IMG/VR virus record: IMGVR_UViG_2698536369_000020
From: a virus
Lineage: Duplodnaviria; Heunggongvirae; Uroviricota; Caudoviricetes
DNA length: 17,285 nt
Strand: one strand, 5' to 3'
The first letter of the stretch is position 1. Every line of letters begins with the position of its first letter. Below are positions 982 through 16,964 of the stretch, piece by piece. The notes below the pieces were generated by a model, which was not told the origin of the DNA, did no database searches, and was given only the letters and a program-made list of their open reading frames with translations. Position numbers and translations under genes: made by a program.

Positions 982-1192
982 GCGTTCATTAATTTGATTT
1001 ATTCGCATCCATCAGCGCTTTTAACTCCTCCGGCGTAAACGGTGGTTTGCGTCGGTACAACATCGCATGGCAATTAGGGCACACAGGCAGCAAAAAAACA
1101 AATGAGATCAAAGTAATATATCTTCACTTGCAGGCTTGAACAGCAGAAAATTTGCGAGCATGATCGCAATTATTTCACTGCCAGGGATATCA

Positions 1193-2065
1193 ATGGCTTC
1201 CAGTAAATCGCTACAGCAGGCAATTGCCAATATAAAAATCTGGCACAAGGGTGAACAGCGCGCGCCGCATAAGCCATTGTTATTGCTATACGTATTAGCG
1301 GGATACCTGCATGGACATCCGCGCCTTTTCGATTATGGCTCGGAAATCTACGAACCTCTGCACAGTTTACTGGAACGTTTTGGGCCACAGCGTTCACAGT
1401 ACCGACCTGATATGCCGTTCTGGCGATTACAAGGCGACGGATTCTGGCAATTACACAATGCCGAGCTTTGCTCAACAGCAGGGAGCAGCCGACAACCGCC
1501 AGTGAAGGAACTGAACGAATACCACGTTGCAGGCGGTTTCGATGAACAGCACTACGCCCTGGTAACCGGCAATAAAAAACTCATCAATACTCTGGCGCAA
1601 CAGATACTCGAAGCGCACTTCACCGAGAGTATTCAGGAAGAAATTGCTGACGAGCTGGGTTTTGATCTCCAGCAAATCCGTAAACAGCGCGACCCGTTAT
1701 TTCGCAAAAATGTATTACGTGCTTATAAATACCAGTGCGCGATATGTGGCTTTAATATGCGCCACGACGACACCACCGTCGCGCTGGAAGCGGCGCATAT
1801 AAAATGGAAACAGCACGGCGGTCCTTGTGAAATTCCTAATGGTCTGGCGCTTTGTGCAATACACCATAAAGCCTTTGATAAAGGATCGATTGGCCTGGAT
1901 GAAAATATGCGGGTACTGGTCTCGGATGCGGTAAACGGCGGAGGGATCGTTGAGAGATTATTCTGGGATTTTGACGGGAAAACTATTGCGTTGCCACAGG
2001 TGCGTAAAAATTACCCTTTTGAGGGGTTTGTGGAGTGGCATCGAAAAGAGGTTTTTAGGGGGTGA
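1193..2065 (+). CDS. HNH-family (HNH_2-like) endonuclease, possibly a modification-dependent restriction enzyme
   Basis: C-terminal motif block CAICGF...AAHIKW...NGLALCAIHHKAFDKG fits the HNH / HNH_2 nuclease signature (Cys pair, catalytic His, N..LC..HH..FD.G). N-terminal ~150 aa is a separate domain (HKPLLLLYVLAGY...). Start chosen at the ATG at 1193, which has an AGGGA Shine-Dalgarno ~6 nt upstream; the ORF track extends to a TTG at 1136. No adjacent methyltransferase. Confidence 0.6.
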   Translation: MASSKSLQQAIANIKIWHKGEQRAPHKPLLLLYVLAGYLHGHPRLFDYGSEIYEPLHSLLERFGPQRSQYRPDMPFWRLQGDGFWQLHNAELCSTAGSSRQPPVKELNEYHVAGGFDEQHYALVTGNKKLINTLAQQILEAHFTESIQEEIADELGFDLQQIRKQRDPLFRKNVLRAYKYQCAICGFNMRHDDTTVALEAAHIKWKQHGGPCEIPNGLALCAIHHKAFDKGSIGLDENMRVLVSDAVNGGGIVERLFWDFDGKTIALPQVRKNYPFEGFVEWHRKEVFRG

Positions 2066-2106: not shown

Positions 2107-2289
2107 TCAGTGCAGGATCTTGCCGCTAGTTTACAACTCGCCTTCGATAGCGGCGCAAAACGAGTTCTGTTGCCGATATCCTCGGCTATGGATATTCCAA
2201 CAGTTCCGGCAGAGTTGTTTACCAAGTTTCAGGTAAGTTTTTACTCAGAACCGGTTGATGCGGTTTATAAGGCGCTGGATGTGAATTAA
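2107..2289 (+). pseudogene. Start-less C-terminal remnant of a Lon-protease-like gene (BrxL-like?)
   Basis: Open frame without a start codon encodes ...LQLAFDSGAKRVLLPISSAMDIPTVPAELFTKFQVSFYSEPVDAVYKALDVN*, which matches the pattern of the extreme C-terminus of Lon-type protease domains (A..GiK.VLlP..n..dl..iP......l.v.fv..v.ea....AL). Too short for the ORF track; sits just downstream of the HNH gene. Confidence 0.35.
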
Positions 2290-2621
2290 CACATTCCTCA
2301 GCTTATTTACAAAAGGATTATTCCCATTTGATATAATATCAGTGCCAATTTACTTTTTTCAATGGAATATATCTCGGCTAAATAACAATAAAACTTATCG
2401 CTAATGGATTAAATAAACAATTTTCTAATTCATTTCACCACCTTTGATATAGAAATTGATGGTGTTGTCGCTGCCATTGCTTATGGTGATGATAAAATCC
2501 ACGTTTCTGGATCGTTGCGTAGAAAATCATCACTACCTTGATATTTTGATGCGATATGATCATACCGTTCCGTAGTACCAATTTCAATTTCAGGCTAACC
2601 CCCAACATTAAAAAAATTAGA

Positions 2622-2665
2622 GTTATTCACTAATTATATTATCAATAATATAATCAGTGAATAAC
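2622..2665 (-). terminator. Long imperfect palindrome downstream of the two-gene operon, putative rho-independent terminator
   Basis: GTTATTCACT...(24-nt AT palindromic loop)...AGTGAATAAC gives 10-bp perfect arms, 23 nt past the stop of the 246-aa gene; on the minus strand it is followed within ~10 nt by a T7 run. Confidence 0.4.
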
Positions 2666-2687
2666 ATGGACTATATAATAAATTGCT

Positions 2688-3428
2688 CTAATCATTTCCC
2701 TTACGAATATATGGGCCAAAAGCCCAAGAATCATAATAAGGGTGATGGACTAGTTTTTCATTAAATCGAACACTATAAGTTAATTTTTTTATATTTTTAC
2801 GTACAGCATTAATACTGGGCAAAGAGGAAAGATAATCTATAAACTTATCGATAGTGATTTCCCCTTCGCAACACTCAAACCCATCAATGATATTTTTCGC
2901 CATTTTTCCATTTTCATTTTTTTGATATATCACTCCAGGTATTCGTTGAAAAAAACTAGATAATGCATATTTGTCCGCTACATATGTATCATCCACATGA
3001 TATTTCCCACCGAGCATAGTTGTAGTAACAATAAGCTTATACACACCTTTGGGTTGCCATGTTGATGGTAGTTCGAATTCTTTAATGATCACATCAAGAT
3101 GATTAAGATAATGTTCAGAAATTCGATTTATTTGTTGAAAATAAGAACGCATAAATTTATTATTATGATCATGTATTAATGAGCTATCTCCAACGATGTT
3201 ACACACTTGCTGATAGTACTTACCATAATATATTGGTTGACCATTTGATTTTAGTTCTGTAAAAATCAAACAATCATCCAGGAGAATCACGCAATCGCAC
3301 TGATAATTAGCATAAACATCAATTGGAGGAGCTTTAATCCCCGCATCACGAACTTGTTTTATAAATTGTTGCTCATGAAATCGCCCTTTACTTGCTTGAG
3401 AAATTTTTTTGGAACCAAATAATGACAT
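2688..3428 (-). CDS. Hypothetical protein with NERD / PD-(D/E)xK-like nuclease signature, 246 aa (distal gene of two-gene operon)
   Basis: N-terminal region GRFHEQQ...VYANYQCDCVILLDDCLIFTELKSNGQPIYYG fits the NERD-type layout (G..xE, then acidic residue, hydrophobic strand, E-x-K). Its ATG overlaps the stop of the upstream gene (TAATG at 3426-3430), indicating translational coupling. Strongly AT-rich. Confidence 0.55.
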   Translation of the reverse strand: MSLFGSKKISQASKGRFHEQQFIKQVRDAGIKAPPIDVYANYQCDCVILLDDCLIFTELKSNGQPIYYGKYYQQVCNIVGDSSLIHDHNNKFMRSYFQQINRISEHYLNHLDVIIKEFELPSTWQPKGVYKLIVTTTMLGGKYHVDDTYVADKYALSSFFQRIPGVIYQKNENGKMAKNIIDGFECCEGEITIDKFIDYLSSLPSINAVRKNIKKLTYSVRFNEKLVHHPYYDSWAFGPYIRKGND

Positions 3429-4726
3429 TAGACTGAGCTATTTGCTATTAATGCAGGCATTAAGCATAAACCGTCCATACAGGGAATAAATGGGCAATCA
3501 TTAAGATCATGTGATTTTGAATTGAAGGTAAAATAATCTATCAGTTTTTTTGCTGCATCTGCTGCAATCCCCTTACGTTGAAAGAATGATAACCAACTCT
3601 CACGGCTTTTTATGATCAGCCAGCGATCCAACTGTAGGGGTATAGGTTTTGTCGATGAAAATCTTTTGCTCATTTCTTCTTTAGATAACTCGACTAAACA
3701 TTGATAAGCGTGCACCCAATTAAATAATGATATATTCCCATATTCTTCATGAAGGTCATCAGGAGACATATTTTCCAACTCGCTTAGATGAAATGAGCTA
3801 AAAACGCCATCAGAATTTAAGTAAGATGGCATATGATCCTTTACCCAACTATTTAGATGAAAATGTTTGTTACTAAATTCATGAACTTCGCTATATAGAT
3901 GTGACGCTCTCATCATTAGTCTATTTCTTGCAATCTCATAATCTCGGTATAAACAAAAACTATCAACCTCAAGAGAGTAAATGTTATTATCCAATTTTGT
4001 AAATACTGCACTACTTAGTCTGAAAAAGTCTCTTACTCTGCTTAATGAGTCAAAAACATTCCACTCATTAAGGTACCCTCCCATTGAAAGCAAGGTTTGT
4101 TTATTCACACAAGAAGTTAGTTTCAATGGCCCATGAGTCCGTAAATAAGAAAATATTCTTCCGGTGTAATTGGCTACCTCATCAAATGCCCTATCGATAA
4201 CTCGAAAATATTCGATATCAGGTTCAGCATGAATATTAATATTTTCAGAAACGATAAATAATGGAAAAATCCTCTTCATTTTTTTAGGATCATTGACCAC
4301 AACCAAGGATGATAATGATGATAAAAACATCTCACAAAACATGATGAGATTAAGTATTAATGCATGTGATTTTTTTGTGTTTTTACGCCAAATACCAGCA
4401 CATTTTGTAGCCGCAAAAAAAGAATTATTGATATCATGCATAATTTTACATTGACTCTCGAACTCAGAGATTAGTTCAATGTTATCAGGAAATGAGTTTA
4501 CTAGCTCATTAATACATTTTTTGAATGTATTGTTATACTCAACTTCAGTCTGAACTGAAAATCTATTATAATAGATGGAAGATATTCTCAGCACATCCAA
4601 GGCGATATCTATACTAATATCATCTCTTTTTATGTACTCACAAAAAAAAGAACAAAACTGTTTCGGGTCGTTAGCAAGATTACTGATTCTAGTGGTATCA
4701 TAAACTTTTTCCATTTTTCCATACAT
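3428..4726 (-). CDS. Hypothetical protein, 432 aa, no recognisable family (proximal gene of two-gene operon)
   Basis: Long uninterrupted ORF in strongly AT-rich DNA; no Walker A, HNH, PD-(D/E)xK or other motif that I can recognise; one ~23-residue hydrophobic stretch (HALILNLIMFCEMFLSSLSSLVVV). A second in-frame ATG four codons downstream has the AGGA box at a more plausible spacing (~11 nt). Confidence 0.55.
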   Translation of the reverse strand: MYGKMEKVYDTTRISNLANDPKQFCSFFCEYIKRDDISIDIALDVLRISSIYYNRFSVQTEVEYNNTFKKCINELVNSFPDNIELISEFESQCKIMHDINNSFFAATKCAGIWRKNTKKSHALILNLIMFCEMFLSSLSSLVVVNDPKKMKRIFPLFIVSENINIHAEPDIEYFRVIDRAFDEVANYTGRIFSYLRTHGPLKLTSCVNKQTLLSMGGYLNEWNVFDSLSRVRDFFRLSSAVFTKLDNNIYSLEVDSFCLYRDYEIARNRLMMRASHLYSEVHEFSNKHFHLNSWVKDHMPSYLNSDGVFSSFHLSELENMSPDDLHEEYGNISLFNWVHAYQCLVELSKEEMSKRFSSTKPIPLQLDRWLIIKSRESWLSFFQRKGIAADAAKKLIDYFTFNSKSHDLNDCPFIPCMDGLCLMPALIANSSV

Positions 4727-5403
4727 CCTATTGTCTAAATTACTATAAAACTAGCCACTTAACTAATAATTATAAATTTCATCTTTTACACCTTGCATTT
4801 TTATAACCAATGAAATCTACAACAAGCAACTGATGGATAATACGATATTGGTCGCATTTAATGGCATGGTAGCAAAGTTTTCATCACATACCTCCTTTGC
4901 ACCAGAATAAACGCCAGAGACCTGAAATTGCGAGTACACTACAGAAATTGTACTGCCGGTCCCATCAGCATAAAACCATAGTTACACAGGTAATCATCAT
5001 TATTCGCCAAGATAATAAATATTATTCAGTAGAATAGCGTTCTCAGGTGGTCAGTAAAATTGTCTTCAACAAGATGTCTGCGCATCTCGTCTGCTAGCCC
5101 TACATAACTGCTCTCGACCGAAACTATTTATTGAATATTCACCAAGGTGGGCGTGGAGACAAAATGACGTCTTTTGATATTAGCTACCTGAGCCACATGG
5201 TCAAAACGTTCAAATAGCATAGCGAAACCACCCTGCCCACGTAATGTGGACGATGCAGCTTCCAGCCAGAGCAAACTTGGGACCATCGACTACAAAATGA
5301 AGAATACTGAACTGCTTTTCTGGCAGGCCTATATACTGCACGGATATGGGTGATTTCAGACACAAAAAAAGCCGCTCTTGAGCGACTCGATTTGCATACG
5401 GTG

Positions 5404-5422
5404 TGGTGCGAAGGCCGGACTC
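5404..5422. repeat. attR: 19-bp direct repeat of the leuX 3' end (P4-type att core)
   Basis: TGGTGCGAAGGCCGGACTC at 5404-5422 versus TGGTGCCGAAGGCCGGACTC at 17080-17099 inside the tRNA 3' end (one C missing). The two copies bracket the whole P4-like gene set. Confidence 0.7.
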
Positions 5423-5476
5423 AAATATCAAAATAAGTCAATGATAAAAAACAAATAATAAAAAACAAAAATGAAA

Positions 5477-5497
5477 TATGCCCCCTTTTGTGCCCCC
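5477..5497. repeat. Two TGCCCCC motifs near attR, candidate integrase arm-type binding sites
   Basis: ATATGCCCCC ttttg TGCCCCCA; the same heptamer recurs three times next to attL/int start (16918-16964). Confidence 0.3.
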
Positions 5498-5567
5498 ATT
5501 GTTTTTCTGACCAATCTATTTTCAACCCATCAACAAATCGGAAAGTTAACTAATTTTTAATCAGTGA

Positions 5568-5594
5568 GTTTGGATCCGTAGCTCGGATCCAAAC
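5568..5594. other. Perfect hairpin: 11-bp stem, 5-nt loop
   Basis: GTTTGGATCCG tagct CGGATCCAAAC; located between attR and the crr-like repeats; no adjacent U-run typical of an intrinsic terminator. Confidence 0.4.
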
Positions 5595-5620
5595 CAGTGC
5601 ATCTTTTACCCACATAAAAA

Positions 5621-5915
5621 ATTTTTTTTCGGAAGAACTGTTCACACTGTTCACCCTTTGATTTTCTCCTTTTATTTCAGAGTAATAGATGGTGAATAAT
5701 GGGTGAAGGGTGAACATTCGATTCTTCACCTCCGGCATTCTGCCGATGTGACTTGTGCAGGGGATTAATCCTCCGCACTGAAATCACACAGGGAGAAAAA
5801 AGTTTTTTTTGATTTGATTGTTCACACTGTTCACCTTTCGTTTTTCTCTTTTAATTTCAGTGTGATAACGGGTGAATATACGGTGAAGGGTGAACAGTGG
5901 ATTGTTCACCTGCGG
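5621..5915. repeat. crr-like region: two ~120-bp direct repeats, each carrying TGTTCACC-type iterons
   Basis: Unit 1 ~5621-5745 and unit 2 ~5797-5915 both read A6-T8, TGTTCACACTGTTCACC, ~50 nt, GGTGAAnnnnGGTGAAGGGTGAACA, TTCACC. Lies immediately downstream of the alpha gene. Matches my recollection that P4 crr is two 120-bp direct repeats with type-I iterons bound by alpha protein. Confidence 0.6.
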
Positions 5916-5969
5916 GGAATTCAGGGATAAAAAAAGACCGGCAGATGCCGGTCAGGTGGGTCATGAGGG

Positions 5970-8303
5970 TCAGGTTGTTGCAGGGTCGTCACATTTTGGC
6001 AGCCAGTCGCCGTAGCTTTCCTCTTTCAGCGTCAGGTTGGTCTGTATCCCCTGTTTGGTATGGCGCTTCTCGTAATTCAGTCCGTATTCCTTCAGCATCA
6101 CCGGCAGCCCCAGCCCGAACATTTTCAGACTGAGTACATTCCGGTAGCCGTTTGCCTCCATGTAGGCCAGATAGGCGTGATAGAGGTATTTACGGTAATT
6201 ACGCGGGATGATACTGGCGTTCCCCATATACATGCCGCTGGTCTGCGGCAGGGTTTCCAGATAGCCGATAAAATCAAACGTCGGGTCGGCATCCCGTTTG
6301 ATGTTCAGTGCCTCGTCTGAGTTCTGCTGGGACTGAAGCAGTGACCGGGCGAGCATCGGGTCGCTGAACTTCTGCATCAGGTGACGCACGATGACCGCCA
6401 GCTCGCGGGTGATTTTGTCCTTAAGCTGCGGGTCGCGCTCCTGCGGGGCTATCTGTTCCGGGAAGTGAATAATCACCCGCCGGCGTGACACGCCGCCGCT
6501 GCGGTCGGTGAAGCGCATCGGGTTATTGTTGACGGCCAGAATCACCGCCGGGATATGCGTGGAGTACGCATCCCGGTATTTCGGGTCAACGGACACCGCA
6601 TCGCCGCCGGTGATGGCCTTGAGTCCGGCTCCGTCGCCGCTCCATTTTTCCTGGTCCGGCAGGCGTATCAGTGAGAAGCCAGTTAACGCGGCACGTTCAC
6701 GCGGGGATTCCAGCGTCTCGATGGTGGCCGACGTGGCGTTATCCTCCCCGGCCAGCAGGGTGGCTATTTCGGCCATGATACTTTTGCCGCTGCCGCCGGG
6801 ACCGGTCACCTCCAGAAAGAGCTGCCAGTCGTAGCGGTTTGCCAGCACCATAAACAGTGCGGCCAGAATCACGTCGCGTTTTTCCGCACGACCACCGGCG
6901 GCACGGTCAAGCCAGCGCCAGAACGCGGGAGCGTGGGTTTCCAGCATTTCCCCTTCCACCGGCGGGGTGAAATCCACATCGCACAGGGTGCGCATCCAGT
7001 GTGACGGACTGTGCGGGTGGAACGAGCCGTTCTGCGTGTCGAGCACGCCGTTACGAAAGCCAATCAGGCGGCGGGAGGGGGCTTCCTGCTGCGGAATAAT
7101 CAGCTTCAGGGTGTCCACCACGGAGGCCACCTTCCCGGAGGAGAACGGCGCGCGCAGCCGCTGAAACAGCCCGGCCACATCCCGGGCAAAGTCCTGTGGT
7201 GGCAGCACCTTCCAGACACCATTTTCATAACGGGACAGAAGCTGGCCGTTGGCATCGACCGCGAGCGCCTCGCCGTAATGCTCATAGATACGCATGGCCT
7301 TTTCGCTGGTACTCATGGCGGAAAACTCCGCTTCACTCATGGTGTCGAACGGGCTTTCAGCCGGTGGCCGGATGGCATCGTAAATGGCCTTACGGGTGGC
7401 CTCCCCGCCGTACTGCGTGAAGGCATCATTCCAGTCACCGAAGACCGGTGGCAGGGCAACAACACCTTCACACGCATCTGCGGCTGCGGCGGCTTTTTTC
7501 TGGCCGTCACCGCTGAGGTCACGGTCAGCAGCAAGGACAATCTGACAGGCCGGATGCTTCTGCCGGGCAAGGCTGGCCAGAGAAAGGAGGTTCACGGAAG
7601 AAAGCGCCACCATCACCGTTTCACCGGTCAGGTGATGTACGGTAAGTGCGGTCGCGTATCCCTCCGCTATCCACAGACGTTTTCCGGCCTGATTCTGTCC
7701 TTCAAGGGTGTGACAGGTGCCCCTGACCTGTCCGCCTTTCAGGGTGCGCTTACGGCCGTCAGCACTGATTAACTGAAGGTTAACCAGTTCGCCGCTGTCG
7801 TCATACAGTGGCACCACAAGGTCACCGGCGCGCCAGCTCACGCCACCGGCTCTGTGTGTGCCGGTCAGCATCCGGCATTCCCGGCCGGGAAAGCCCTTGC
7901 GGGTCAGGTAGGCGTTACCGGTTCCGGGACGGGTTTTTGCCATCAGGGTTTGTGCCAGTGCGGCGGCGTTCTTCCGGGCGGCTTCTGTTTCAGCACCGGC
8001 GGCGGCCGTCACTGTCGGGTCAGCCGGGGGCAGGCTGCCGGTCACGGCAGCCACCTTTGCGGCCGCGTCGGACGGAGAGACACCAAACACCTTTTCAACC
8101 AGTTTCAGGCCGTCACCGGCACCACACTGATTGCAGTACCAGGTGCCGCGCCCCTCCCTGTCATCAAAACGGAAGCGGTCACTCCCGCCACAGACCGGAC
8201 AGGGCTGATGACGGTTTTTCAGCACCTGAATCCCCAGCGCCGGGAGAATACGCGGCCAGTGGCCGAGCGCATGGCTGACGGTGGCGGTTACGTTCATTTT
8301 CAT
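5970..8303 (-). CDS. P4 alpha-like primase-helicase, 777 aa
   Basis: N-terminal zinc-binding primase motif CPVCGGSDRFRFDD...GTWYCNQCGAGDG, central TOPRIM-like region, C-terminal Walker A GPGGSGKS; length equals that recalled for P4 alpha. Confidence 0.85.
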   Translation of the reverse strand: MKMNVTATVSHALGHWPRILPALGIQVLKNRHQPCPVCGGSDRFRFDDREGRGTWYCNQCGAGDGLKLVEKVFGVSPSDAAAKVAAVTGSLPPADPTVTAAAGAETEAARKNAAALAQTLMAKTRPGTGNAYLTRKGFPGRECRMLTGTHRAGGVSWRAGDLVVPLYDDSGELVNLQLISADGRKRTLKGGQVRGTCHTLEGQNQAGKRLWIAEGYATALTVHHLTGETVMVALSSVNLLSLASLARQKHPACQIVLAADRDLSGDGQKKAAAAADACEGVVALPPVFGDWNDAFTQYGGEATRKAIYDAIRPPAESPFDTMSEAEFSAMSTSEKAMRIYEHYGEALAVDANGQLLSRYENGVWKVLPPQDFARDVAGLFQRLRAPFSSGKVASVVDTLKLIIPQQEAPSRRLIGFRNGVLDTQNGSFHPHSPSHWMRTLCDVDFTPPVEGEMLETHAPAFWRWLDRAAGGRAEKRDVILAALFMVLANRYDWQLFLEVTGPGGSGKSIMAEIATLLAGEDNATSATIETLESPRERAALTGFSLIRLPDQEKWSGDGAGLKAITGGDAVSVDPKYRDAYSTHIPAVILAVNNNPMRFTDRSGGVSRRRVIIHFPEQIAPQERDPQLKDKITRELAVIVRHLMQKFSDPMLARSLLQSQQNSDEALNIKRDADPTFDFIGYLETLPQTSGMYMGNASIIPRNYRKYLYHAYLAYMEANGYRNVLSLKMFGLGLPVMLKEYGLNYEKRHTKQGIQTNLTLKEESYGDWLPKCDDPATT

Positions 8304-8317
8304 GGTGTTGTTCTCCT

Positions 8318-8638
8318 TCAGTGCAGTACCGGCGCTTTTATGTGACGGGCACAGAGTTCATCCATCACAACCAGCCCGAGAAAGGACAGCGACGGCGCGG
8401 CCTTCAGGGGGCCGGATTCCATTAAATCTTCCAGCAGGGCACAGGCTATCTGACGCCCTTTTTCCTCACCGTGCTGGCGCAGATAAAAGCCCTCCAGCTC
8501 AGCGGCGATGGCCGCCTCCAGTGATTCAAGGGTGAGATGCGGGTAGCGGTGCTGACGTTCGCACACGGTCAGCCAGGCACAGGCGACAGCGCGACGGTAA
8601 AGGGCAGCGCGTAAGACGGGCGGTAAGGGTGTTTTCAT
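8318..8638 (-). CDS. P4 orf106-like small protein, 106 aa
   Basis: ORF directly upstream of alpha in the same operon orientation; size and position match the small ORF between orf151 and alpha in P4-like elements. Function unknown. Confidence 0.45.
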
Positions 8639-8773
8639 TTGTTTTCCTCCCTGTGACAGATGACTGCATTCCGTGCCGGTTGTATTAACTGATAAGGCAT
8701 ATCTGCGTCTCCTGAAGACGTGCGTATCCCTGCGCGAATACGCACATTTAATTTTTCGGGTGTCGTTTTTTAA

Positions 8774-9229
8774 TTACAGATAATTGCGGTAACTGTTATC
8801 CGGGGTGATTTCCGGGTCAGGCTCCGTGCGGGGAATTTCCCGCCATTCCCGCGCCACCGGTGCCGCCCGGCTGGCCGGAACAGTGTCCTGCGGGTAAATA
8901 TCCAGATATTTCTCCCGCCATTTCTGTAATTCCGGGTCTCCGGCCATTTCTTTCAGTACCGCATGCCGGTTTACGGGGCTGCGTTTAAACAGGTCAGGAC
9001 GGTCACAGGTAAATTCCCGCAGAAAACGCCCCAGCGGGATGTCTGTGGTGCGCCCGTCTGCGAGGATACGCACAAGGATACTGAATTTACGGCGGTACGG
9101 GTTCCAGACAATGTCCGGGCAGCGGTACGGCATTTCCCACGGAATACCGTCTTCCAGAATGCCGACCACGGCCACATCGGGAAAACCGGCAGAACGGTAA
9201 ATCTCACCGGGCTGGGGAAAATCAAACAT
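8774..9229 (-). CDS. P4 orf151-like protein, 151 aa
   Basis: Size and position in the leftward operon match P4 orf151; start overlaps the upstream eps-like stop by a few nt. Confidence 0.45.
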   Translation of the reverse strand: MFDFPQPGEIYRSAGFPDVAVVGILEDGIPWEMPYRCPDIVWNPYRRKFSILVRILADGRTTDIPLGRFLREFTCDRPDLFKRSPVNRHAVLKEMAGDPELQKWREKYLDIYPQDTVPASRAAPVAREWREIPRTEPDPEITPDNSYRNYL

Positions 9230-9509
9230 GCGTCTTGTCTCCCCGGTCTTTCTGCTGGGCGAGAAAATCGCGGCACAGGCCTTTGGCTTTCAGCTCATTC
9301 AGCACAAAATCAATATCTTCATTCAGGTAGCTGAAAATATGCGGAATGTAGAGCTGATGCAGGCCGGAGAGTTCACGGTGAATCAAATCACCCCCAACAA
9401 ACTGGGATACGGCGCTGGCGCGGTTGAGCTTATGGTAAGCCTCAATGCTGAGGTGTTCACGGGCGTCATGACGCGCTGAGACGGTCTGAGGGGCTTTTTT
9501 ATTACGCAC
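9222..9509 (-). CDS. eps-like small protein (~95 aa from a GTG start)
   Basis: GTG at 9509-9507 preceded by GGAGG at ~6 nt; begins [20 protein letters not shown]...; the GTG overlaps the stop of the upstream kil-like ORF. The ORF track's 177-aa version runs through the upstream gene and has no ribosome-binding site. Confidence 0.4.
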
Positions 9510-9699
9510 GGGACACCTCCACCACCGGCAGACGGGCAGCAAGGGAGAGCACATAGTCACGGACAAGGGAACGGCGGGCGCTGCGTTCATCACCGGCGAC
9601 GGTGCGAAGCATGCAGATACGGGGATGACGGTCTGCGCGACGGACAGCCGCAAACACAAAGACAAATTCAGGGTGTGAGGGGGTAAGGGTTGTAGCCAT
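9502..9699 (-). CDS. kil-like small protein, 65 aa (first gene after the immunity region)
   Basis: ATG at 9699-9697 with AAGGAGG ~8 nt upstream; [16 protein letters not shown]...; position right after the CI/seq elements matches P4 kil. Assignment is by synteny only. Confidence 0.4.
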
Positions 9700-9710
9700 G
9701 ATGGCAGCCT

Positions 9711-9752
9711 CCTTGAAGTAACAGTTACAGCTACCACTGGAGTTCCTACGCT
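9711..9752 (-). promoter_or_regulatory. seqC-like target element of the P4-type RNA immunity system
   Basis: CCTTGAAGTAAC ... GTTCCTACGC; same two boxes recur at 9933-9958; the candidate CI region between them contains the complementary GTAGGAA; this copy abuts the kil ribosome-binding site. Confidence 0.4.
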
Positions 9753-9754
9753 CA

Positions 9755-9845
9755 TGGGTGGTAGCCCGGACGGGGGTAGGAATACCGGCCTTCAAGGAAA
9801 CCGGCCAGCCCGAAGGCTGCCCCGCCCGGACCACCATTATCTGAC
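9755..9845 (-). ncRNA. CI-RNA-like structured immunity RNA (boundaries approximate)
   Basis: GC-rich segment with terminal complementarity (GGTGGTAGCCCGG ... CCGGACCACC) and an internal GGTAGGAATACC box complementary to the flanking seq elements; lies between the two seq copies, as P4 cI lies between seqA and seqC. Confidence 0.35.
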
Positions 9846-9932
9846 AGAGGCTACGGTTTAAAAACCACAGCCAGAAAAACAGGTGTGCCGAAGCAACGAC
9901 GTAAAAAAAGACGCATGGCGCGTCATATGTCG

Positions 9933-9958
9933 CCTTGAAGTAACTCGGGTTCCTACGC
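9933..9958 (-). promoter_or_regulatory. seqA-like target element (upstream copy)
   Basis: CCTTGAAGTAAC tcgg GTTCCTACGC, direct repeat of the element at 9711-9752. Confidence 0.4.
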
Positions 9959-10052
9959 CCGGCTGCCGATTTTGCGGCAGCGGAAAAACTATATCCGCAA
10001 ATGCCGGAAAAAGGCAAGCCAGAAAAAGGGAGTTTTTGCAGAACAGGCATCA

Positions 10053-10319
10053 TCATGCGTCGTACCCCCGTTTGCGTCCGGCAATGCGTCCGGCCATCCA
10101 TGCGGTGACTTCAGAGTGCAGCCAGGCCACATTTTTACCGCCAAGACTCACCTGCGGCGGAAATTCCCCCTTACGGATGAGTTCATAGATGGTCGAGCGT
10201 GACAGGCCGCACAGGTGCATCACTTCCGGCAGACGTAAAAAACGCTCCTGCGTGATGTCCGGCAGCGGCATCAGTGGCGTAACAGGGGCGGGAGACGGGG
10301 AAGAAAAAACAGCTTGCAT
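10053..10319 (-). CDS. Vis / AlpA-family phage regulatory DNA-binding protein, 88 aa
   Basis: HTH region [51 protein letters not shown] is characteristic of AlpA/Vis; 88 aa, transcribed divergently from sid, as P4 vis (orf88) is. Confidence 0.7.
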
Positions 10320-10596
10320 CGGGCTACCTCGTTAATGTCCATACAGCACCGGATAAGTCCGTCCGGCTTCGGGTAGCGCTTTATTTTGTGAATATTTTCA
10401 GCAGACGCAACAGGGGGAATTTGTTCCGGCAACCTTACAATGGCTGTGTGTTTTTTATCCATCTGGACTGGAAGGGTCTCAAAGGGTTCTGAAGGAACTG
10501 TAATTTTTTATAGTGAAATGCAAATTGTTTTTCCTTATTTATTTCAGTGAATTAATAAAAATAAACAGTAATAAACAGCATAAAAAGCCCATCAAC

Positions 10597-10704
10597 GGGT
10601 GAACAGTGGTGAACAGACGGTGAACAGTCATTACTGCGATTGTTCACCCTTTAACTTACTGTATTACTTATCTTTTTTCTTATGGTGAACAGAGGTGAAC
10701 AGTA
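10597..10704. repeat. ori-like cluster of six TGTTCACC-type iterons
   Basis: GGTGAACAG t GGTGAACAG ac GGTGAACAG (three direct copies at ~11-bp spacing), one inverted copy (TGTTCACCC at ~10641), then GGTGAACAG a GGTGAACAG; between vis and sid. Confidence 0.6.
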
Positions 10705-10870
10705 AAATATAAAAAAACAAACAGTAAGCCGGTTTTTCCTGCGACCTTTTCCTGGCTTGCCGGTCTGAGGATGAGTCTCCTGTGTCAGGGCTGGCACATC
10801 TGCAATGCGTCGTGTTGTTGTCCGGTGTACGTCACAATTTTCTCAACCTGAAGTGACGAGGAGCCGGAAA

Positions 10871-11605
10871 ATGTCTGACAACACCATCCCTGAATATCTG
10901 CAACCCGCGCTGGCACAACTGGAAAAGGCCAGAGCCGCCCATCTTGAGAACGCCCGCCTGATGGATGAGACCGTCACGGCCATTGAACGGGCAGAGCAGG
11001 AAAAAAATGCGCTGACGCAGGCCGACGGAAACGATGCTGACGACTGGCGCACGGCCTTTCGTGCAGCCGGTGGTGTCCTGAGCGACGAGCTGAAACAGCG
11101 CCACATTGAGCGCGTGGCACGCCGGGAGCTGGTACAGGAATATGACAATCTGGCCGTGGTGCTGAATTTTGAACGCGAACGCCTGAAAGGGGCGTGTGAC
11201 AGCACGGCCACCGCCTACCGGAAGGCACATCATCACCTTCTGAGTCTGTATGCAGAGCATGAGCTGGAACACGCCCTGAATGAAACGTGTGAGGCGCTTG
11301 TCCGGGCAATGCATCTGAGCATTCTGGTACAGGAAAATCCGCTCGCCAACACCACCGGGCATCAGGGCTACGTCGCACCCGATAAAGCTGTCATGCAGCA
11401 GGTGAAATCATCGCTGGAACAGAAAATAAAACAGATGCAAATCAGCCTCACCGGCGAGCCGGTTCTCCGGCTGACCGGACTGTCAGCGGCAACACTCCCG
11501 CACATGGATTATGAGGTGGCAGGCACACCGGCACAGCGCAAGGTGTGGCAGGACAAAATAGACCAGCAGGGAGCAGTGCTTAAGGCCAGAGGACTGCTGT
11601 CATGA
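10871..11605 (+). CDS. sid: Sid-like external capsid-size scaffold protein, 244 aa
   Basis: ATG at 10871 preceded by GAGGAG; 244 aa from this start equals the recalled length of P4 Sid; first gene of a sid-delta-psu-sized triplet; coiled-coil-like composition. The ORF track's 266-aa version starts 22 codons upstream without a ribosome-binding site. Confidence 0.6.
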   Translation: MSDNTIPEYLQPALAQLEKARAAHLENARLMDETVTAIERAEQEKNALTQADGNDADDWRTAFRAAGGVLSDELKQRHIERVARRELVQEYDNLAVVLNFERERLKGACDSTATAYRKAHHHLLSLYAEHELEHALNETCEALVRAMHLSILVQENPLANTTGHQGYVAPDKAVMQQVKSSLEQKIKQMQISLTGEPVLRLTGLSAATLPHMDYEVAGTPAQRKVWQDKIDQQGAVLKARGLLS

Positions 11606-12102
11606 TTTACTGCCCGTCGTGTGGACATGTTGCTCACACCCGTCGCGCACATTTCATGGACGATGGCACCAAGATAATGATTGCACAGTGCCGGAATATT
11701 TATTGCTCTGCGACATTTGAAGCGAGTGAAAGCTTTTTCTCTGACTGTAAAGATTCAGGAATGGAATACATTTCAGGCAAACAGAGATACCGCGATTCAC
11801 TGACTTCTGCCTCCGGCAGTATGAAACGCCCGAAAAGAATGCTTGTTACCGGATATTGTTGTCGGAGATGTAAAGGCCTTGCACTGTCAAGAACATCGCG
11901 GCGTCTGTCTCAGGAAGTCACCGAGCGTTTTTATGTGTGCACGGATCCGGGCTGTGGTCTGGTGTTTAAAACGCTTCAGACCATCAACCGCTTCATTGTC
12001 CGCCCGGTCACGCCGGACGAACTGGCAGAAAGCCTGCATGAAAAACAGGAACTGCCGCCAGTACGGTTAAAAACACAATCATATTCGCTGCGTCTGGAAT
12101 GA
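11602..12102 (+). CDS. Delta-like late transcription activator (tandem Ogr-type zinc fingers), 166 aa
   Basis: N-terminal half CPSCGHVAHTRR...CRNIYCSATFEASES mirrors the P2 Ogr zinc-finger signature (CP.C.H.AH.R...C.N..CSATF) and a second, degenerate copy follows (C..C...RTSR...C....C..VF); start overlaps the sid stop (ATGA). Confidence 0.75.
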   Translation: MIYCPSCGHVAHTRRAHFMDDGTKIMIAQCRNIYCSATFEASESFFSDCKDSGMEYISGKQRYRDSLTSASGSMKRPKRMLVTGYCCRRCKGLALSRTSRRLSQEVTERFYVCTDPGCGLVFKTLQTINRFIVRPVTPDELAESLHEKQELPPVRLKTQSYSLRLE

Positions 12103-12175
12103 GGGCTGCCGGTTAACCCCGGCCGTCGCCGCACACCGTATTTTTATTCTTCAGCATGATGAGAAAGAGATAACG

Positions 12176-12748
12176 ATGGAAAGCACAGCCTTACAGCAGG
12201 CCTTTGACACCTGTCAGAATAACAAAGCAGCATGGCTGCAACGCAAAAATGAGCTGGCTGCGGCCGAACAGGAATATCTGCGGCTTCTGTCCGGGGAAGG
12301 CAGAAACGTCAGTCGCCTGGACGAATTACGCAATATTATCGAAGTCAGAAAATGGCAGGTGAATCAGGCCGCCGGTCGTTATATTCGTTCGCATGAAGCC
12401 GTTCAGCACATCAGCATCCGCGACCGGCTGAATGATTTTATGCAGCAGCACGGCACAGCACTGGCGGCGGCACTGGCACCGGAGCTGATGGGATACAGTG
12501 AGCTGACGGCCATTGCCCGAAACTGTGCCATACAGCGTGCCACAGATGCCCTGCGTGAAGCCCTTCTGTCCTGGCTTGCGAAGGGGGAAAAAATTAATTA
12601 TTCCGCACAGGATAGCGACATTTTAACGACCATCGGATTCAGGCCTGACGCGGCTTCGGTGGATGACAGCCGTGAAAAATTCACCCCTGCGCAGAACATG
12701 ATTTTTTCGCGTAAAAGTGCGCAACTGGCATCACATCAGTCTGTGTAA
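12176..12748 (+). CDS. psu: Psu-like polarity-suppression / capsid-decoration protein, 190 aa
   Basis: 190-aa ORF immediately after delta, followed by a terminator and cos site; size and position match P4 Psu. Confidence 0.6.
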   Translation: MESTALQQAFDTCQNNKAAWLQRKNELAAAEQEYLRLLSGEGRNVSRLDELRNIIEVRKWQVNQAAGRYIRSHEAVQHISIRDRLNDFMQQHGTALAAALAPELMGYSELTAIARNCAIQRATDALREALLSWLAKGEKINYSAQDSDILTTIGFRPDAASVDDSREKFTPAQNMIFSRKSAQLASHQSV

Positions 12749-12784
12749 AACTCCCCGAAAATCCGTCCGATTTTACTGAAAAAA

Positions 12785-12822
12785 GCCATGCATCGATAAG
12801 GTGCATGGCTTTGCATGCGTTT
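12785..12822 (+). terminator. Putative intrinsic terminator of the sid-delta-psu operon
   Basis: Hairpin GCCATGCA tcgataagg TGCATGGC followed by TTTGCATGCGTTTT, ~37 nt after the psu stop. Confidence 0.4.
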
Positions 12823-12912
12823 TCCTGCCTCATTTTCTGCAGACCGCGCCATTCCCGGCGCGGCCTGAGCGTGTCAGTGCAACTGCATTAAAACCGCCCT
12901 GCAAAGCGGGCG

Positions 12913-12931
12913 GGCGAGGCGGGGAAAGCAC
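12913..12931. other. cos site (P2/P4-type 19-nt cohesive end sequence)
   Basis: GGCGAGGCGGGGAAAGCAC matches the cohesive-end sequence I recall for P2/P4; located between psu and the hotspot, as in P4. Confidence 0.55.
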
Positions 12932-13010
12932 TGCGCGCCAGTATCTATTAATTTACATTCATAGAATCCTTGCAAAGCAGATTCTGCTAAGATCCCTGAA
13001 ACTTGAGTTG

Positions 13011-13028
13011 AGGATTAGTGTTAATCCT
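13011..13028. promoter_or_regulatory. Palindrome upstream of the methyltransferase gene, candidate operator
   Basis: AGGATTA gtgt TAATCCT (7-bp arms), ~35 bp upstream of the methyltransferase start; a weaker GCAGA t TCTGC palindrome lies at 12977-12987. Confidence 0.3.
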
Positions 13029-13064
13029 TTACAATATCCTAGTATTTGGCTGCTAAGTATGTAG

Positions 13065-14318
13065 GTGATTATTTTGTCTAGTAAAAAGTTTATTTCGCTA
13101 TTTAGTGGCGCAATGGGGTTAGACTTAGGTCTCGAAGAGGCTGGCTTTGAGCTCGTAGCTTGCGTTGAACAAGATAAGGCAGCTCTAAAAACAATTAAAA
13201 CTAATAAGCCAAATCTTGCTGTATTCGAAGGTAGTATTGTTGACTGCACTGGCTCTGAATTATTAGCACTAGCCGGAGTGAATGATAAAGAAGAAATAGA
13301 TTTAGTTGCTGGCGGTCCACCGTGCCAAGCATTTAGTGTTTTTGGAAATAGGTTAGGGCTAGAAGATGCCAGAGGGCAGCTTATTTTCGAATATGTTCGA
13401 ATGATTAAAGAATTAAACCCAAAAGTTTTCGTAATGGAAAACGTACGCGGTTTATTATCAATGTCTATAGTTCCAGCTTCTAAAAAGAAGGAGCTATCAG
13501 GCACAATCGCAGCATCTGCTTTCGAAAAAGGCTCTCTAATAAAAAGGGTAGCTAACGAATTCAATAAACTAGGTTATCATGTGGATTGCTTTGTAGTTAA
13601 TGCTGCCAACTATGGAGCCCCACAAATTAGGGAGCGTGTTATTTTAATTGGTAATCGCTTCGGAATGATAGCCAATTTCGCCTCCCCTTTATTCAGCAAT
13701 AGAGTAGAAGATAATCTTCCGCCATTCAAAACGCTGGGGGATGTAATTGGCCCAGAGAGCGGTTTTGTTGATAAATATCCAGAAGTCATGAATTTTTCGC
13801 CAAGAAAACTGAAATATCTTTCAATGGTTCCACCTGGCGGAAACTGGAGAAGCATGCCAGAAGAAATGCAAAAAGAATCTATGGGAAAAAGCTGGTATCT
13901 TAAAGGAGGAAGAAGTGCTTACTGGAGGAAACTATCTTTCCAGTTTCCTTCACCCACAGTAGTAACAATGCCAAATCATGCGGGAACAAGTATGTGCCAC
14001 CCAACTGAACTTAGAGCTATTTCTGTTGGTGAAGCTGCCGCGATACAAGAGTTTCCTGATTACTGGAAATTTGAAGGTACAACTACAGAAAAATTCAGAC
14101 AGATAGGTAACGCAGTTCCTGTCCGGTTAGGTAAAGTTGCAGGGGAAGCTGCTATGGAACTTCTTCATCGTATACAAGAAAATAAGGTTGCTGATTTAGT
14201 AACTCCAGATTATATAGAAACCCATATTAGACCGCATATTAGAACCAGATCTTTCTTTAAAAATGGTCAAGCATATAGTGGAGATGTTTCTTACTACGAC
14301 CTTGAAGAAGAAGTTTAG
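13065..14318 (+). CDS. DNA (cytosine-5)-methyltransferase, type II modification enzyme
   Basis: Canonical C5-MTase motifs in order: motif I LFSGAMGLDLG, motif IV GGPPCQAFS, motif VI ENVRGL, motif X QIGNAVPV, with a variable target-recognition region between. Low-GC. Exact start (GTG 13065 or a nearby codon) is uncertain. Confidence 0.85.
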   Translation: MIILSSKKFISLFSGAMGLDLGLEEAGFELVACVEQDKAALKTIKTNKPNLAVFEGSIVDCTGSELLALAGVNDKEEIDLVAGGPPCQAFSVFGNRLGLEDARGQLIFEYVRMIKELNPKVFVMENVRGLLSMSIVPASKKKELSGTIAASAFEKGSLIKRVANEFNKLGYHVDCFVVNAANYGAPQIRERVILIGNRFGMIANFASPLFSNRVEDNLPPFKTLGDVIGPESGFVDKYPEVMNFSPRKLKYLSMVPPGGNWRSMPEEMQKESMGKSWYLKGGRSAYWRKLSFQFPSPTVVTMPNHAGTSMCHPTELRAISVGEAAAIQEFPDYWKFEGTTTEKFRQIGNAVPVRLGKVAGEAAMELLHRIQENKVADLVTPDYIETHIRPHIRTRSFFKNGQAYSGDVSYYDLEEEV

Positions 14319-14328
14319 AATTAGTCAT

Positions 14329-14357
14329 AAAAAAAACTGGCCCTTAGGCCAGTTTTT
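14329..14357. terminator. Bidirectional intrinsic terminator between the convergent methyltransferase and endonuclease genes
   Basis: AAAAAAACTGGCC ctta GGCCAGTTTTTT: GC stem flanked by an A-run on one side and a T-run on the other, so it can terminate both converging transcripts. Confidence 0.6.
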
Positions 14358-15175
14358 TATTCATTAATCATTTCAAGTAATTTGTGCCATTGAGCTGTGC
14401 CATCAGCATTTAGAACTTGCTCATTGTACTTCTTTGCAACATGTTCTTTGAATTTTTCAATAAGATCTTTATTTTTTTCTTTTATATCTGCTTCTTTTAC
14501 AGCACGTTCTATACCTTCAAGTACCCAATGCTGGGTTTCAGCCTCACCATTGTTAAGCCATGACCAAAATTCTTTACCAGCATATACATGCACTTTGTCA
14601 CGAATATCAATCACATTGTGGTTTGCACCAGTATTGATACCTCGTAAGATTCTATACTTATCAGTTAATCCATGGCTATTTCCATAAAAAACCCCAACCA
14701 CTATATTGTCAGCCACTCCAGGATAATTATTTATGATTTCGTGAAATGCTTTATTTAGTTGGACAGCCATCGTCAATTGAATAGTCCATTTCCCTGCCTT
14801 AAGAGATAAAAGCTCAATTCTACCATCATCCCTTTGTATTACATGATCTATTTCATCAAAGCAAGGGTGTATAAAAGGCTCGTTGGCAGCTCTATAACTT
14901 TTATCTAATTTATATGCACCAAACACTCTAGGAAGTATTTTTTCATCAATCAATTTTCCAAAGCCAGTATCATGCCCAGTCATTAAATGCTTAGCAATTA
15001 TTGCTTCAACTAGTTCATCAAAATCATTAAGGGAATGATAATCAAAAATAAAAGGGGTCATAAACGGATTTATGGACATTGTTTCTGACATTAACTTTGT
15101 TAGTTTACTTTGTCTCTCCAAAATCCACCACGCAGCACACTCCTGCACTTTAAGTATAACTTCTTGCTTATTCAT
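14357..15175 (-). CDS. Putative type II restriction endonuclease, 272 aa
   Basis: Assigned by context: convergent with a C5-MTase, and its start overlaps the stop of an upstream controller-protein gene (classic C-R-M layout). I do not recognise the family from sequence alone. Confidence 0.6.
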   Translation of the reverse strand: MNKQEVILKVQECAAWWILERQSKLTKLMSETMSINPFMTPFIFDYHSLNDFDELVEAIIAKHLMTGHDTGFGKLIDEKILPRVFGAYKLDKSYRAANEPFIHPCFDEIDHVIQRDDGRIELLSLKAGKWTIQLTMAVQLNKAFHEIINNYPGVADNIVVGVFYGNSHGLTDKYRILRGINTGANHNVIDIRDKVHVYAGKEFWSWLNNGEAETQHWVLEGIERAVKEADIKEKNKDLIEKFKEHVAKKYNEQVLNADGTAQWHKLLEMINE

Positions 15176-15473: not shown

Positions 15474-15522
15474 CGAAAATCCTCTTTTTGGAGGTAGGTT
15501 TGCACTTTTTACACTCGAAATT

Positions 15523-15539
15523 ACTAAGGAATACTTAGT
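15523..15539. promoter_or_regulatory. Candidate C-box operator palindrome
   Basis: ACTAAG gaata CTTAGT, ~50 bp upstream of the preferred C-protein start. Confidence 0.35.
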
Positions 15540-15640
15540 TTTTAAAAGCAATGGAATAATTGCCTAAGAAGTTGTTAAGTGAAGGTTAAAAAGACACAAG
15601 CATTGCTGTTGATGAAGGCTAGTTCAAACTAAGCGGAGAC

Positions 15641-16927: not shown

Positions 16928-16964
16928 TTCTAATCGAAGTTAAGATGCCCCCAATTATGCCCCC
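16918..16964. repeat. Three TGCCCCC heptamers (one inverted, two direct) between int start and attL, candidate Int arm-type sites
   Basis: GGGGGCA (16918-16924), ATGCCCCC (16945-16952), ATGCCCCC (16957-16964); same motif as near attR. Confidence 0.3.

Follow-up and report, generated by a model that had tools for sequence, protein, structure and literature searches.

The window, a stretch of 17,285 nucleotides, carries at positions 2688-4726 two minus-strand open reading frames (ORFs) joined by a TAATG stop/start overlap (Table 1). Both ORFs and the overlap, described in an initial annotation of this DNA, were confirmed. The segment is indeed AT-rich relative to the flanking nanS and P4 backbone, as had been judged: its G+C content is 0.328, compared with 0.485 in nanS, 0.484 in the HNH gene and 0.608 in the gene of the P4 primase. 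The long palindrome taken for a terminator was found as a hairpin 3′ of the gene with an RNA fold energy of -22.2 kcal/mol. The 432-aa proximal protein exists as an ORF, but translation probably begins with the ATG at position 4714 (MEKVYD..., 428 aa) and not at 4726, because RefSeq uses the former for the intact gene and it agrees with the N-termini of relatives from other genera. The location at leuX, with an HNH gene on one side and a P4-like satellite on the other, had been given correctly. The gene is not cargo of the P4 satellite hotspot (within the att repeats, between psu and int), since it ends at 4726, ~680 bp outside the repeat, and in satellite-free strains it is present adjoining leuX, ~690 bp from the tRNA-Leu.

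Table 1. Features of the split gene and its surroundings in the window (residue numbers refer to the intact protein).
Feature	Position	Strand	Remarks
Terminator-like AT-rich hairpin	2622..2665	-	20-bp stem, 4-nt loop, then T-rich tail TCTAATTTTT
Downstream fragment of split gene	2688..3428	-	246-aa ORF; intact residues 433-678
Nuclease catalytic-core codons	3249..3374	-	E451 3374-3372, D477 3296-3294, E490 3257-3255, K492 3251-3249
TAATG junction and 10-bp deletion site	3426..3435	-	By comparison with intact alleles
Upstream fragment of split gene	3428..4726	-	432-aa ORF as listed; intact residues 1-428
T8 homopolymer tract	4642..4649	-	Codons 20-23; T9 variant shifts frame
att-like repeat of leuX 3′ end	5409..5425	.	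Partner 17086-17102; edge of P4-like satellite

Comparison with intact alleles indicates that 2688-4726 is one gene broken by a 10-bp deletion, and that the unbroken gene specifies a standalone protein of 678 aa, a candidate nuclease effector; we put the probability of this reading at about 80%. Intact alleles have ten further bases, GACTCGCTCT, at a point that falls between bases 3432 and 3431 of the window (±1 bp, T microhomology); their loss, at codons 428-431, costs T429-L432 and shifts the frame. The frameshift ends the first ORF, and the nuclease part forms an ORF of its own from the internal Met433. The TAATG overlap is an accidental by-product of the deletion, arisen in the lineage of this strain. 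A search of 5426 complete E. coli genomes with a 45-mer across the fused junction gave matches in 337 (~6%), whereas a query of equal length across the window junction found none among the 5426. For strains 100181 and DE17, RefSeq annotates a single 2037-bp CDS. Phase variation at the junction was ruled out, as the microhomology is of 1 bp only and a repeat tract is absent.

The relatives of the protein have the same architecture. An exhaustive HMMER search recovered 360 representatives (50% identity) from Proteobacteria, Bacillota and metagenomes; about two-thirds of the best 150 of these are single proteins of ~600-730 aa, and the others are shorter, mostly fragments. Among the close relatives, those from other Enterobacterales (Izhakiella, Xenorhabdus, Pectobacterium and Pantoea) and one further relative have single proteins of 669-684 aa, and the Salmonella copy, although partial (558 aa), extends across the junction. 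Close relatives are all unbroken through the conserved ...SSxTRSLMSLFGSK... stretch, and S431 and L432, both removed by the deletion, are invariant in all seven of them. Each relative examined in full was either fused into one protein or a copy of such a protein that had suffered a frameshift or truncation; the sole apparent natural two-gene form inspected (L020) proved to result from a -1 shift of the frame within a T5 tract. A word-indexed homologue search with a diverse profile returned the same E. coli set only, and the family protein was absent from 50,697 phage genomes.

The two ORFs had been annotated as a translationally coupled operon that pairs an effector nuclease with a separate orphan partner. 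The junction counts and the fused relatives contradict the operon, and the 'partner' is the N-terminal region of the same nuclease protein. We therefore regard as very improbable a genuine two-gene module in which the 432-aa partner regulates the 246-aa nuclease, as well as its weaker form, a split allele that works as a two-subunit enzyme. Such a module would account for both ORFs being open, with E451, D477, E490 and K492 all still present in the 246-aa ORF of the window; for the position of the break close to a domain boundary, just before the helix 428-438 that precedes the nuclease core in the AlphaFold2 model; and for the persistence of the split allele in at least three contigs from two to three samples. 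TAATG overlaps can permit translational re-initiation, so that, with the catalytic residues intact, the two products might yet come together as an active enzyme. However, no Shine-Dalgarno sequence is evident ahead of the second ATG, the residues lost include the invariant S431 and L432, fusion is seen in every close relative and in most of the distant representatives, and four unique non-synonymous changes have accumulated in the downstream part only. It is even harder to believe that the deletion is a sequencing or assembly artefact in a strain that really has the intact gene. Although the absence of the junction from all complete genomes checked would fit an artefact, the exact 428-aa product is found in 21 contigs, the 432-aa product in 7 and the 246-aa product in 2-3, and these records stem from separate runs, assembled in NCBI, ENA and Logan. 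Moreover, the deletion does not lie in a homopolymer and is accompanied by linked unique substitutions.

The broken gene appears to be degenerating. The window copy deviates from 52 intact alleles in four residues only (S466P, A470V, H471Y and T602K); none of these occurs in the 52 alleles, and all four lie downstream of the break. At the DNA level, the window-specific changes are four synonymous and no non-synonymous upstream of the break, against none and four downstream (Fisher p = 0.029; eight substitutions in all). This distribution of the amino-acid changes suggests that the window copy, which recurs as a split allele in a few assemblies (GCA_001284545.1, for instance), is probably a decaying pseudogene and unlikely to be active. 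Inactivation recurs in the family: besides the deletion in the window, the CFSAN061763 copy is inactivated by an internal stop, and a T9 allele (see below) is frameshifted near its N-terminus.

An AlphaFold2 model of the intact protein was obtained with a 98-sequence alignment (pLDDT 93.2, pTM 0.92; a 7-sequence alignment gave a pLDDT of only 55.9). In the model, the upstream fragment corresponds to an N-terminal, mainly helical region and a small α/β subdomain. Residues 1 to ~360 are helical and without detectable relatives; the subdomain (~362-424) bears an invariant D403-x-x-D406-x-P408. A membrane-spanning role for the hydrophobic segment 121-143 was ruled out, as it forms a confident helix with a near-invariant E128 mid-segment. 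The downstream fragment corresponds to a predicted C-terminal PD-(D/E)xK nuclease domain (residues ~445-670) with a β-rich C-terminal extension. A NERD or PD-(D/E)xK core had been read in the distal protein, with structure prediction proposed as a check, and this reading held: the GRFHE...CDCVILLDDCLIFTELK motif and the catalytic residues (codon coordinates derived from the ORF start) are found in the 246-aa ORF, and the model contains the α-β-β-β-α-β core of the PD-(D/E)xK superfamily fold. D477, E490 and K492 are the same in all 98 family members compared (15-56% identity), and E451 shows a conservation of at least 90%. Fold and catalytic pattern together, on sequence and model, make the C-terminal part a predicted PD-(D/E)xK nuclease.

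Profile searches gave the protein no name. Both ORFs and the fused protein gave nothing significant against Pfam, NCBIfam and PADLOC profiles, in line with the earlier statements that the proximal protein has no recognisable motif and that no named system fits. The sole PADLOC match of the E. coli protein was local, to PDC-M29B (residues 462-511, E 0.0012). Among 73 relatives, Pfam matches included NERD (9; E ≤ 0.01, best 1e-5), Card1_endonuc (4) and Mrr_cat (1), and PADLOC matches included CARF_PDDEXK (12) and PDC-M29B (8). A PDB sequence search with 7- and 98-sequence profiles found nothing, Foldseek gave no match in PDB or BFVD at E ≤ 0.001, and a DNA-binding domain was detected by none of the profiles searched.

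The surroundings of the gene were surveyed at 11 loci, each inspected individually. In E. coli, at leuX, its neighbours are an HNH enzyme that binds phosphorothioate DNA, Zorya II and Druantia III. Its relatives adjoin a type I restriction-modification system with a Cap4 nuclease and PemK in one case, Gabija inside a Tn7-like element in another, and an AbiJ domain protein or a HigBA-like pair in two more; one belongs to an integrase island that also contains KAP NTPase, Mrr and PIN genes, one follows hsdM-hsdS, and others are carried by IS5-flanked Bacillus and Priestia plasmids. Counting against a defence role, the Izhakiella copy stands alone between enterobactin and sugar-metabolism genes. 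Neither a conserved partner gene nor a methyltransferase as conserved neighbour was present across the loci inspected. The defence-rich, horizontally acquired setting proposed at the outset is thus supported by the neighbours at leuX and by those of the relatives. Since the relatives stand singly, with restriction-modification, Gabija, toxin-antitoxin, integrase and IS genes as their neighbours, a single-protein anti-phage nuclease is plausible.

A gene that is probably the same one has been put to a phage test. The accessible part of the DefensePredictor report (Science 2026, PMC13092281) describes 'HJRS' (WP_250112039.1; Table S6), an E. coli hypothetical protein of 2025 bp and 674 aa with a log-odds of 9.78 and a remote match to UpxA over ~40% of its length. 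According to this part of the report, it was predicted as a novel defence gene, yet gave no protection against the DefensePredictor phage panel. In T9 alleles of the gene described here, an ATG in the alternative frame leads to proteins called at 674 or 681 aa, whose N-terminus is non-native. As 2025 bp and 674 aa equal the RefSeq call for a T9 allele, and the working name echoes Hjc-type matches, 'HJRS' as described there probably is the gene that encodes the intact 678-aa protein. Neighbouring locus tags, the cluster representative and other WP accessions gave no further link in the accessible part of the supplementary tables. Should 'HJRS' be the T9 allele, ~20 residues at its start would be non-native, unlike those of the intact T8 protein (such as WP_097345962.1), and the reported null result possibly reflects an N-terminally frameshifted test allele.

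We infer that the intact protein acts as a single-polypeptide nuclease against phages or mobile elements. Its N-terminal region may sense a trigger, either a phage protein or unusual or modified DNA, and may control or target the C-terminal nuclease, perhaps through autoinhibition; the triggered nuclease would then cut nucleic acid as its presumed substrate. What stands of the undescribed anti-phage module first proposed is a family without a name in a defence context; its two-gene form does not. Tentatively, the intact protein could found an undescribed single-protein immune system, in which the helical region recognises the trigger and frees an Upx-like nuclease, and which the 'HJRS' test missed through the T9 allele or a panel lacking the right phage; we consider this possible, with the odds against it.

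We hold it less probable that the protein is a solitary Type IV or Type IIS-like restriction enzyme that binds DNA with its N-terminal region and cleaves in the manner of FokI or Mrr, needing no phage-protein trigger. Structure comparison did not link the helical region to any known recognition domain, the profile searches picked up no DNA-binding domain, and the probable DefensePredictor test, as far as the accessible report goes, showed no phage restriction. That same partly accessible result would suit a role of the gene in the service of mobile elements, as an addiction or competition nuclease or in recombination or repair, with the gene hitch-hiking in defence islands. Integrases, IS elements, Tn7 or plasmids feature in many of the contexts, and the repeated inactivation (the CFSAN061763 stop, T9 and the window deletion) points the same way. 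Against this stand the lack of a constant link to any one element class, the absence from phage genomes and the neighbours, which are mostly defence genes; recurrent loss, moreover, is also typical of costly defence genes. We consider such a role doubtful, more so than that of a restriction enzyme.

The case shows that, when genomes are scanned, a neat TAATG overlap within an AT-rich island may be what a frameshift has left behind and not operon design, and that comparison with sister genomes quickly separates the two. It also draws attention to an uncharacterised candidate family, a compact protein that combines a putative sensor with a nuclease and has a domain matching nothing known, in the well-studied leuX/O-island 172 defence region, by Zorya II and Druantia III. 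ARMADA II, Druantia III and Zorya II of O-island 172 were themselves ruled out as the identity of the gene, being other genes (z5894-z5902). Should the intact allele prove defensive, the repeated inactivation of the gene would be an example of how costly immune genes turn over.

Among known systems, full-length matches to a system protein of PADLOC-DB 2.0.0 were not found; relatives gave partial matches in the nuclease domain. DefensePredictor DS-26 'NERD' (532 aa) and DS-37 (463 aa), as given in the accessible part of that source, were ruled out as this gene on size. The E...D...ExK pattern and the core fold resemble those of NERD (PF08378) and Mrr/Hjc-type nucleases, and UniRef labels the Izhakiella homologue a NERD domain-containing protein. 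However, where relatives match NERD, only the nuclease core is covered and ~430 residues are unaccounted for, and NERD did not match the window ORF or the intact E. coli protein even at E ≤ 10. By sequence the family is related to NERD at clan level and is not a demonstrable PF08378 member. From the type III CRISPR CARF-nucleases Card1, Can2 and Cdn1 the protein differs in its helical N-terminal region; no CARF or SAVED Pfam model matched among the 73 relatives, in which only nuclease-domain models recur, and CRISPR or cyclase genes were linked to the gene in none of the neighbourhoods inspected. A further parallel is Upx (UpxA), a single-protein anti-phage system that senses the phage large terminase (cryo-EM structure 9wuf; PMC13601566, PMC13099982). 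The family profiles did not find the Upx chain among PDB sequences at E ≤ 10, and there was no Upx model among the PADLOC matches. Upx is a protein of ~1200 aa with a second, atypical nuclease, and its β-strand-bearing N-terminal sensor binds terminase by β-augmentation (PMC13099982, PMC13601566). Both proteins have a divergent C-terminal PD-(D/E)xK nuclease as effector, predicted in our case, whereas the protein described here has 678 aa and a helical N-terminal region in place of the β-strand-bearing sensor. If the intact allele defends, this region would represent a new type of sensor among single-protein nucleases such as Upx.

Two minus-strand ORFs, of 432 and 246 aa, occupy positions 2688-4726 and, as the initial annotation had stated, this stretch is much more AT-rich than its flanks (G+C is 0.328 here, against 0.485 in nanS, 0.484 in the HNH gene and 0.608 in the gene of the P4 primase). 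On the minus strand the junction reads ...AGCTCAGTCTAATGTCA..., in which stop codon TAA and start codon ATG share one base, and the palindromic terminator noted earlier corresponds to a hairpin (Table). The initial description thus holds, save for the start of the upstream ORF, which RefSeq and comparison with the N-termini of relatives place at the ATG of 4714 (MEKVYD...) instead of 4726.

The interpretation of these ORFs as a translationally coupled two-gene operon, however, does not hold. Megablast matched region 2300-5200 in 475 of the 5426 complete E. coli genomes, and in 332 of these the match covers most of the region. In the best match the locus carries one annotated CDS of 2037 bp, whose product is a hypothetical protein of 678 aa (WP_097345962.1). 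Alignment to it revealed few substitutions and one indel: GACTCGCTCT is missing from the window exactly at the junction, and restoring these 10 bases gives an uninterrupted frame, ...PALIANSSVTRSLMSLFGSKK.... A 45-mer across the window junction had no match in the 5426 genomes, whereas the fused junction, searched with a 45-mer in the same set, was present in 337, which provides a positive control. Single proteins of 669-684 aa are encoded in Izhakiella, Xenorhabdus, Pectobacterium, Pantoea and one further source, and a partial Salmonella copy (558 aa) also crosses the junction; the SSxTRSLMSLFGSK stretch is kept in all of them. Since these outgroup relatives are fused, the ancestral form is settled as one gene. 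The second window ORF begins at internal Met433 of the intact protein, and the upstream ORF, proposed to be a separate partner, belongs to the same polypeptide. Given the missing bases, the TAATG overlap is, judging from these alignments, an accident and not operon design.

When 1.84 billion representatives were searched exhaustively with HMMER, 360 family members emerged at E <= 0.001. Of the best 150 of these, about two-thirds are 600-730 aa long, the remainder being shorter, mostly fragments. We inspected two shorter representatives resembling natural half-genes. One, at the P0181 locus, lies 87 bp from a contig end, with the downstream region out of view; the other, in the metagenomic locus L020, is cut short by a -1 frameshift at a T5 run, beyond which its frame continues into the supposed second gene. 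This distant relative is broken (L020 1360-1430) almost where the window is, immediately ahead of the nuclease domain's FKG..E helix, which may be coincidence or a sequencing error.

The deletion is a real allele of a minor lineage, because its exact products recur in several assemblies from NCBI, ENA and Logan (428-aa from 21 contigs, 432-aa from 7 and 246-aa from 2-3; among them GCA_001284545.1 and run SRR10420695, both with the same P4 neighbour) and because the deletion site is not a homopolymer. Set against 52 different intact alleles from E. coli, the window departs from the majority only at S466P, A470V, H471Y and T602K, all downstream of the break and found in none of the 52. Window-specific changes comprise four synonymous and no non-synonymous upstream of the break, and none and four, respectively, downstream (Fisher p = 0.029, resting on the small number of eight changes). 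Such a pattern would be expected if the downstream part were untranslated or of no use and so under relaxed constraint; the window copy is probably a decaying pseudogene, which may retain some two-piece activity. S466P, A470V and H471Y arise from three substitutions within a stretch of 16 bp, in the interval 3249-3428, and may represent a single multi-nucleotide mutational event, not independent hits.

Other alleles are broken or altered too. CFSAN061763 carries an internal stop. A T9 in place of the T8 tract (codon 22), present in only 1 of 336 complete genomes, makes RefSeq call a 674-aa protein from an alternative-frame ATG; T9 together with ATGs of the second frame gives alleles of full length, annotated at 674 or 681 aa, in which ~20 N-terminal residues are replaced. 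Another of these genomes, SCU-115, has an extra base and no annotated CDS. The T9 variant may be meaningful switching, or simply another loss route. Hundreds of draft E. coli assemblies hold the gene as partial proteins of 456-533 aa (P0076-P0082); the contigs of P0076, P0077 and P0080 are only ~1.5 kb, suggesting that assemblies repeatedly break within or next to the gene, perhaps because of a repeat, an inserted IS element or poor coverage of AT-rich DNA.

Neither ORF nor the fused protein had a significant match in Pfam, NCBIfam or PADLOC, in line with the earlier remark that the proximal protein shows no recognised motif. In an alignment of 98 relatives (15-56% identity), P408, G447, D477, E490 and K492 are invariant, and conservation reaches at least 90% at E451, D403, D406, P420, Q531, D584 and G621; the E...D...ExK pattern is the PD-(D/E)xK signature. 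Among 73 relatives, matches were to Pfam NERD (9, best E 1e-5), Card1_endonuc (4, 0.00047) and Mrr_cat (1, 0.00081), and to PADLOC CARF_PDDEXK (12, 6.1e-7) and PDC-M29B (8, 2.5e-5). The AlphaFold2 model of the intact protein, built on the 98-sequence alignment (pLDDT 93.2, pTM 0.92), predicts helices and one short hairpin for residues 1 to ~355, a small alpha/beta unit at 362-424 and, from residue 445 onward, an alpha-beta-beta-beta-alpha-beta core that bears the catalytic residues and leads into a C-terminal extension rich in beta structure. Structural matches were Upx (9wuf, 10.7), FokI (10.5), AF1548 (10.5), NucS (9.7), Can2 (8.4), McrC (8.3), Hna (8.2), Shedu SduA (8.2) and Hjc (7.9). The comparison gives no aligned ranges; as every strong match is a PD-(D/E)xK nuclease, we take the alignments to involve the C-terminal domain, and none accounts for the helical N-terminal part. 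Foldseek gave no significant match for the model in PDB or among viral structures. The nuclease call is therefore upheld, with 'NERD' correct at clan level only.

Positions of features in the window
Feature	Position	Strand	Remark
Gene remnants	~989-1093, 2110-2289		pseudogenes per RefSeq in sister genomes
HNH endonuclease	1136-2065	+	intact
Hairpin	2665..2622	-	20-bp stem, then TCTAATTTTT; -22.2 kcal/mol
Downstream ORF	2688..3428	-	246 aa
Upstream ORF	3428..4726	-	432 aa
T8 tract	4642-4649	-	codons 20-23 of the gene
P4-like satellite	5409-17102		integrated at leuX
att-like repeats	5409-5425, 17086-17102		17 nt; second copy inside leuX
Direct repeats	5489-5915, 10641-10660
Primase	5970-8303	-
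delta/ogr-like gene	11602-12102
psu	12176-12748
C5 methyltransferase	13065-14318	+
EcoO109I-like endonuclease	14357-15175	-
C protein	15168-15551	-
Integrase	15641-16927	-

The gene ends at 4726 and the att-like repeat bounding the satellite begins at 5409, so the gene lies outside the satellite. In satellite-free strains it stands ~690 bp from tRNA-Leu, and after it come an HNH enzyme that binds phosphorothioate DNA, a remnant of nanM, Zorya II and a pair of genes resembling Druantia III; a study of z5894-z5902 (10.1101/2025.09.22.677730) does not include it. The HNH enzyme of the window, likewise of the phosphorothioate-DNA-binding kind, has ScoMcrA-like SBD and HNH_2 domains (PADLOC HNH and mREase_IV matches), and the remnants around it are a sign of repeated turnover at the site. 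Within the satellite, the psu-int hotspot holds a complete type II R-M system with control protein; in strain DE17 a TIR-domain protein fills this slot instead. The direct repeats comprise two 120-nt copies separated by 180 nt and a 20-nt TGTTCACC...-type unit that is present four times; they are, at a guess, P4 ori/crr-type iterons.

Relatives lie beside an integrase and Vsr (Pectobacterium); type I R-M, Cap4 nuclease and PemK (P0135); Gabija and a Schlafen-like gene within a Tn7-like element (P0136); an AbiJ-domain protein (P0145); a HigBA-like toxin-antitoxin pair (P0134); KAP NTPase, Mrr and PIN genes in an integrase island (P0137); or after hsdM-hsdS (P0181). Those of Bacillus mycoides and Priestia are on plasmids, IS5-flanked or mobilisable, the Izhakiella one stands alone between enterobactin and sugar-metabolism genes, and P0139 is on a short contig with no informative neighbours. 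No recurring partner gene was seen in the neighbourhoods examined, and no relative was found in phage genomes. On Priestia filamentosa plasmid pBEH5 (L027 7480-8010), a 176-aa hypothetical ORF precedes the homologue and overlaps its start by 13 bases; nothing like it was seen in the other neighbourhoods. The absence of a recurring partner and of phage-encoded relatives, together with these surroundings, supports a gene that acts on its own, moves horizontally and is found in the company of defence systems.

Of the initial interpretation, the nuclease and the defence-like context thus remain, without operon, coupling or partner. The window holds a frameshift-split, probably dead allele of an uncharacterised single-gene family. 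This family is a plausible, still unproven candidate for a novel variant of immunity by a single-protein nuclease. The best-supported reading of the intact protein is a single-polypeptide sensor-effector, in which the N-terminal region would recognise a cue and gate or target the C-terminal nuclease. A restriction enzyme working alone, of Type IV or Type IIS-like layout, is a serious rival, favoured by the FokI and BspD6I matches and by the lack of a neighbouring methyltransferase; a mobile-element function unrelated to immunity may also be considered.

The sensor-effector candidate has probably been met before. DefensePredictor (Science 2026, PMC13092281) tested a unit 'HJRS' (WP_250112039.1, a 674-aa E. 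coli hypothetical protein, 2025 bp; log-odds 9.78, 'Predicted novel defense gene') with a remote HHblits match to UpxA over 0.396 of its length, and scored it as not defensive. Its size equals the RefSeq call for the T9 allele, and its Upx match and Holliday-junction-resolvase nickname agree with our Upx and Hjc matches, so 'HJRS' is probably this E. coli gene. If so, the gene was already picked out by computation and failed in one assay, although the form tested, if a T9 allele, may have carried ~20 non-native N-terminal residues. We reject the intact protein as a Upx: it is half as large, a helical N-terminal region is predicted for it where Upx is described as having a sensor with beta-strands, and the two have no sequence-level match. 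Upx nevertheless offers the closest worked example of the proposed layout, with a C-terminal PD-(D/E)xK nuclease needed for defence and an N-terminal sensor that binds the phage large terminase (PMC13601566), and with dual nuclease activity and autoinhibition described in a second study (PMC13099982).
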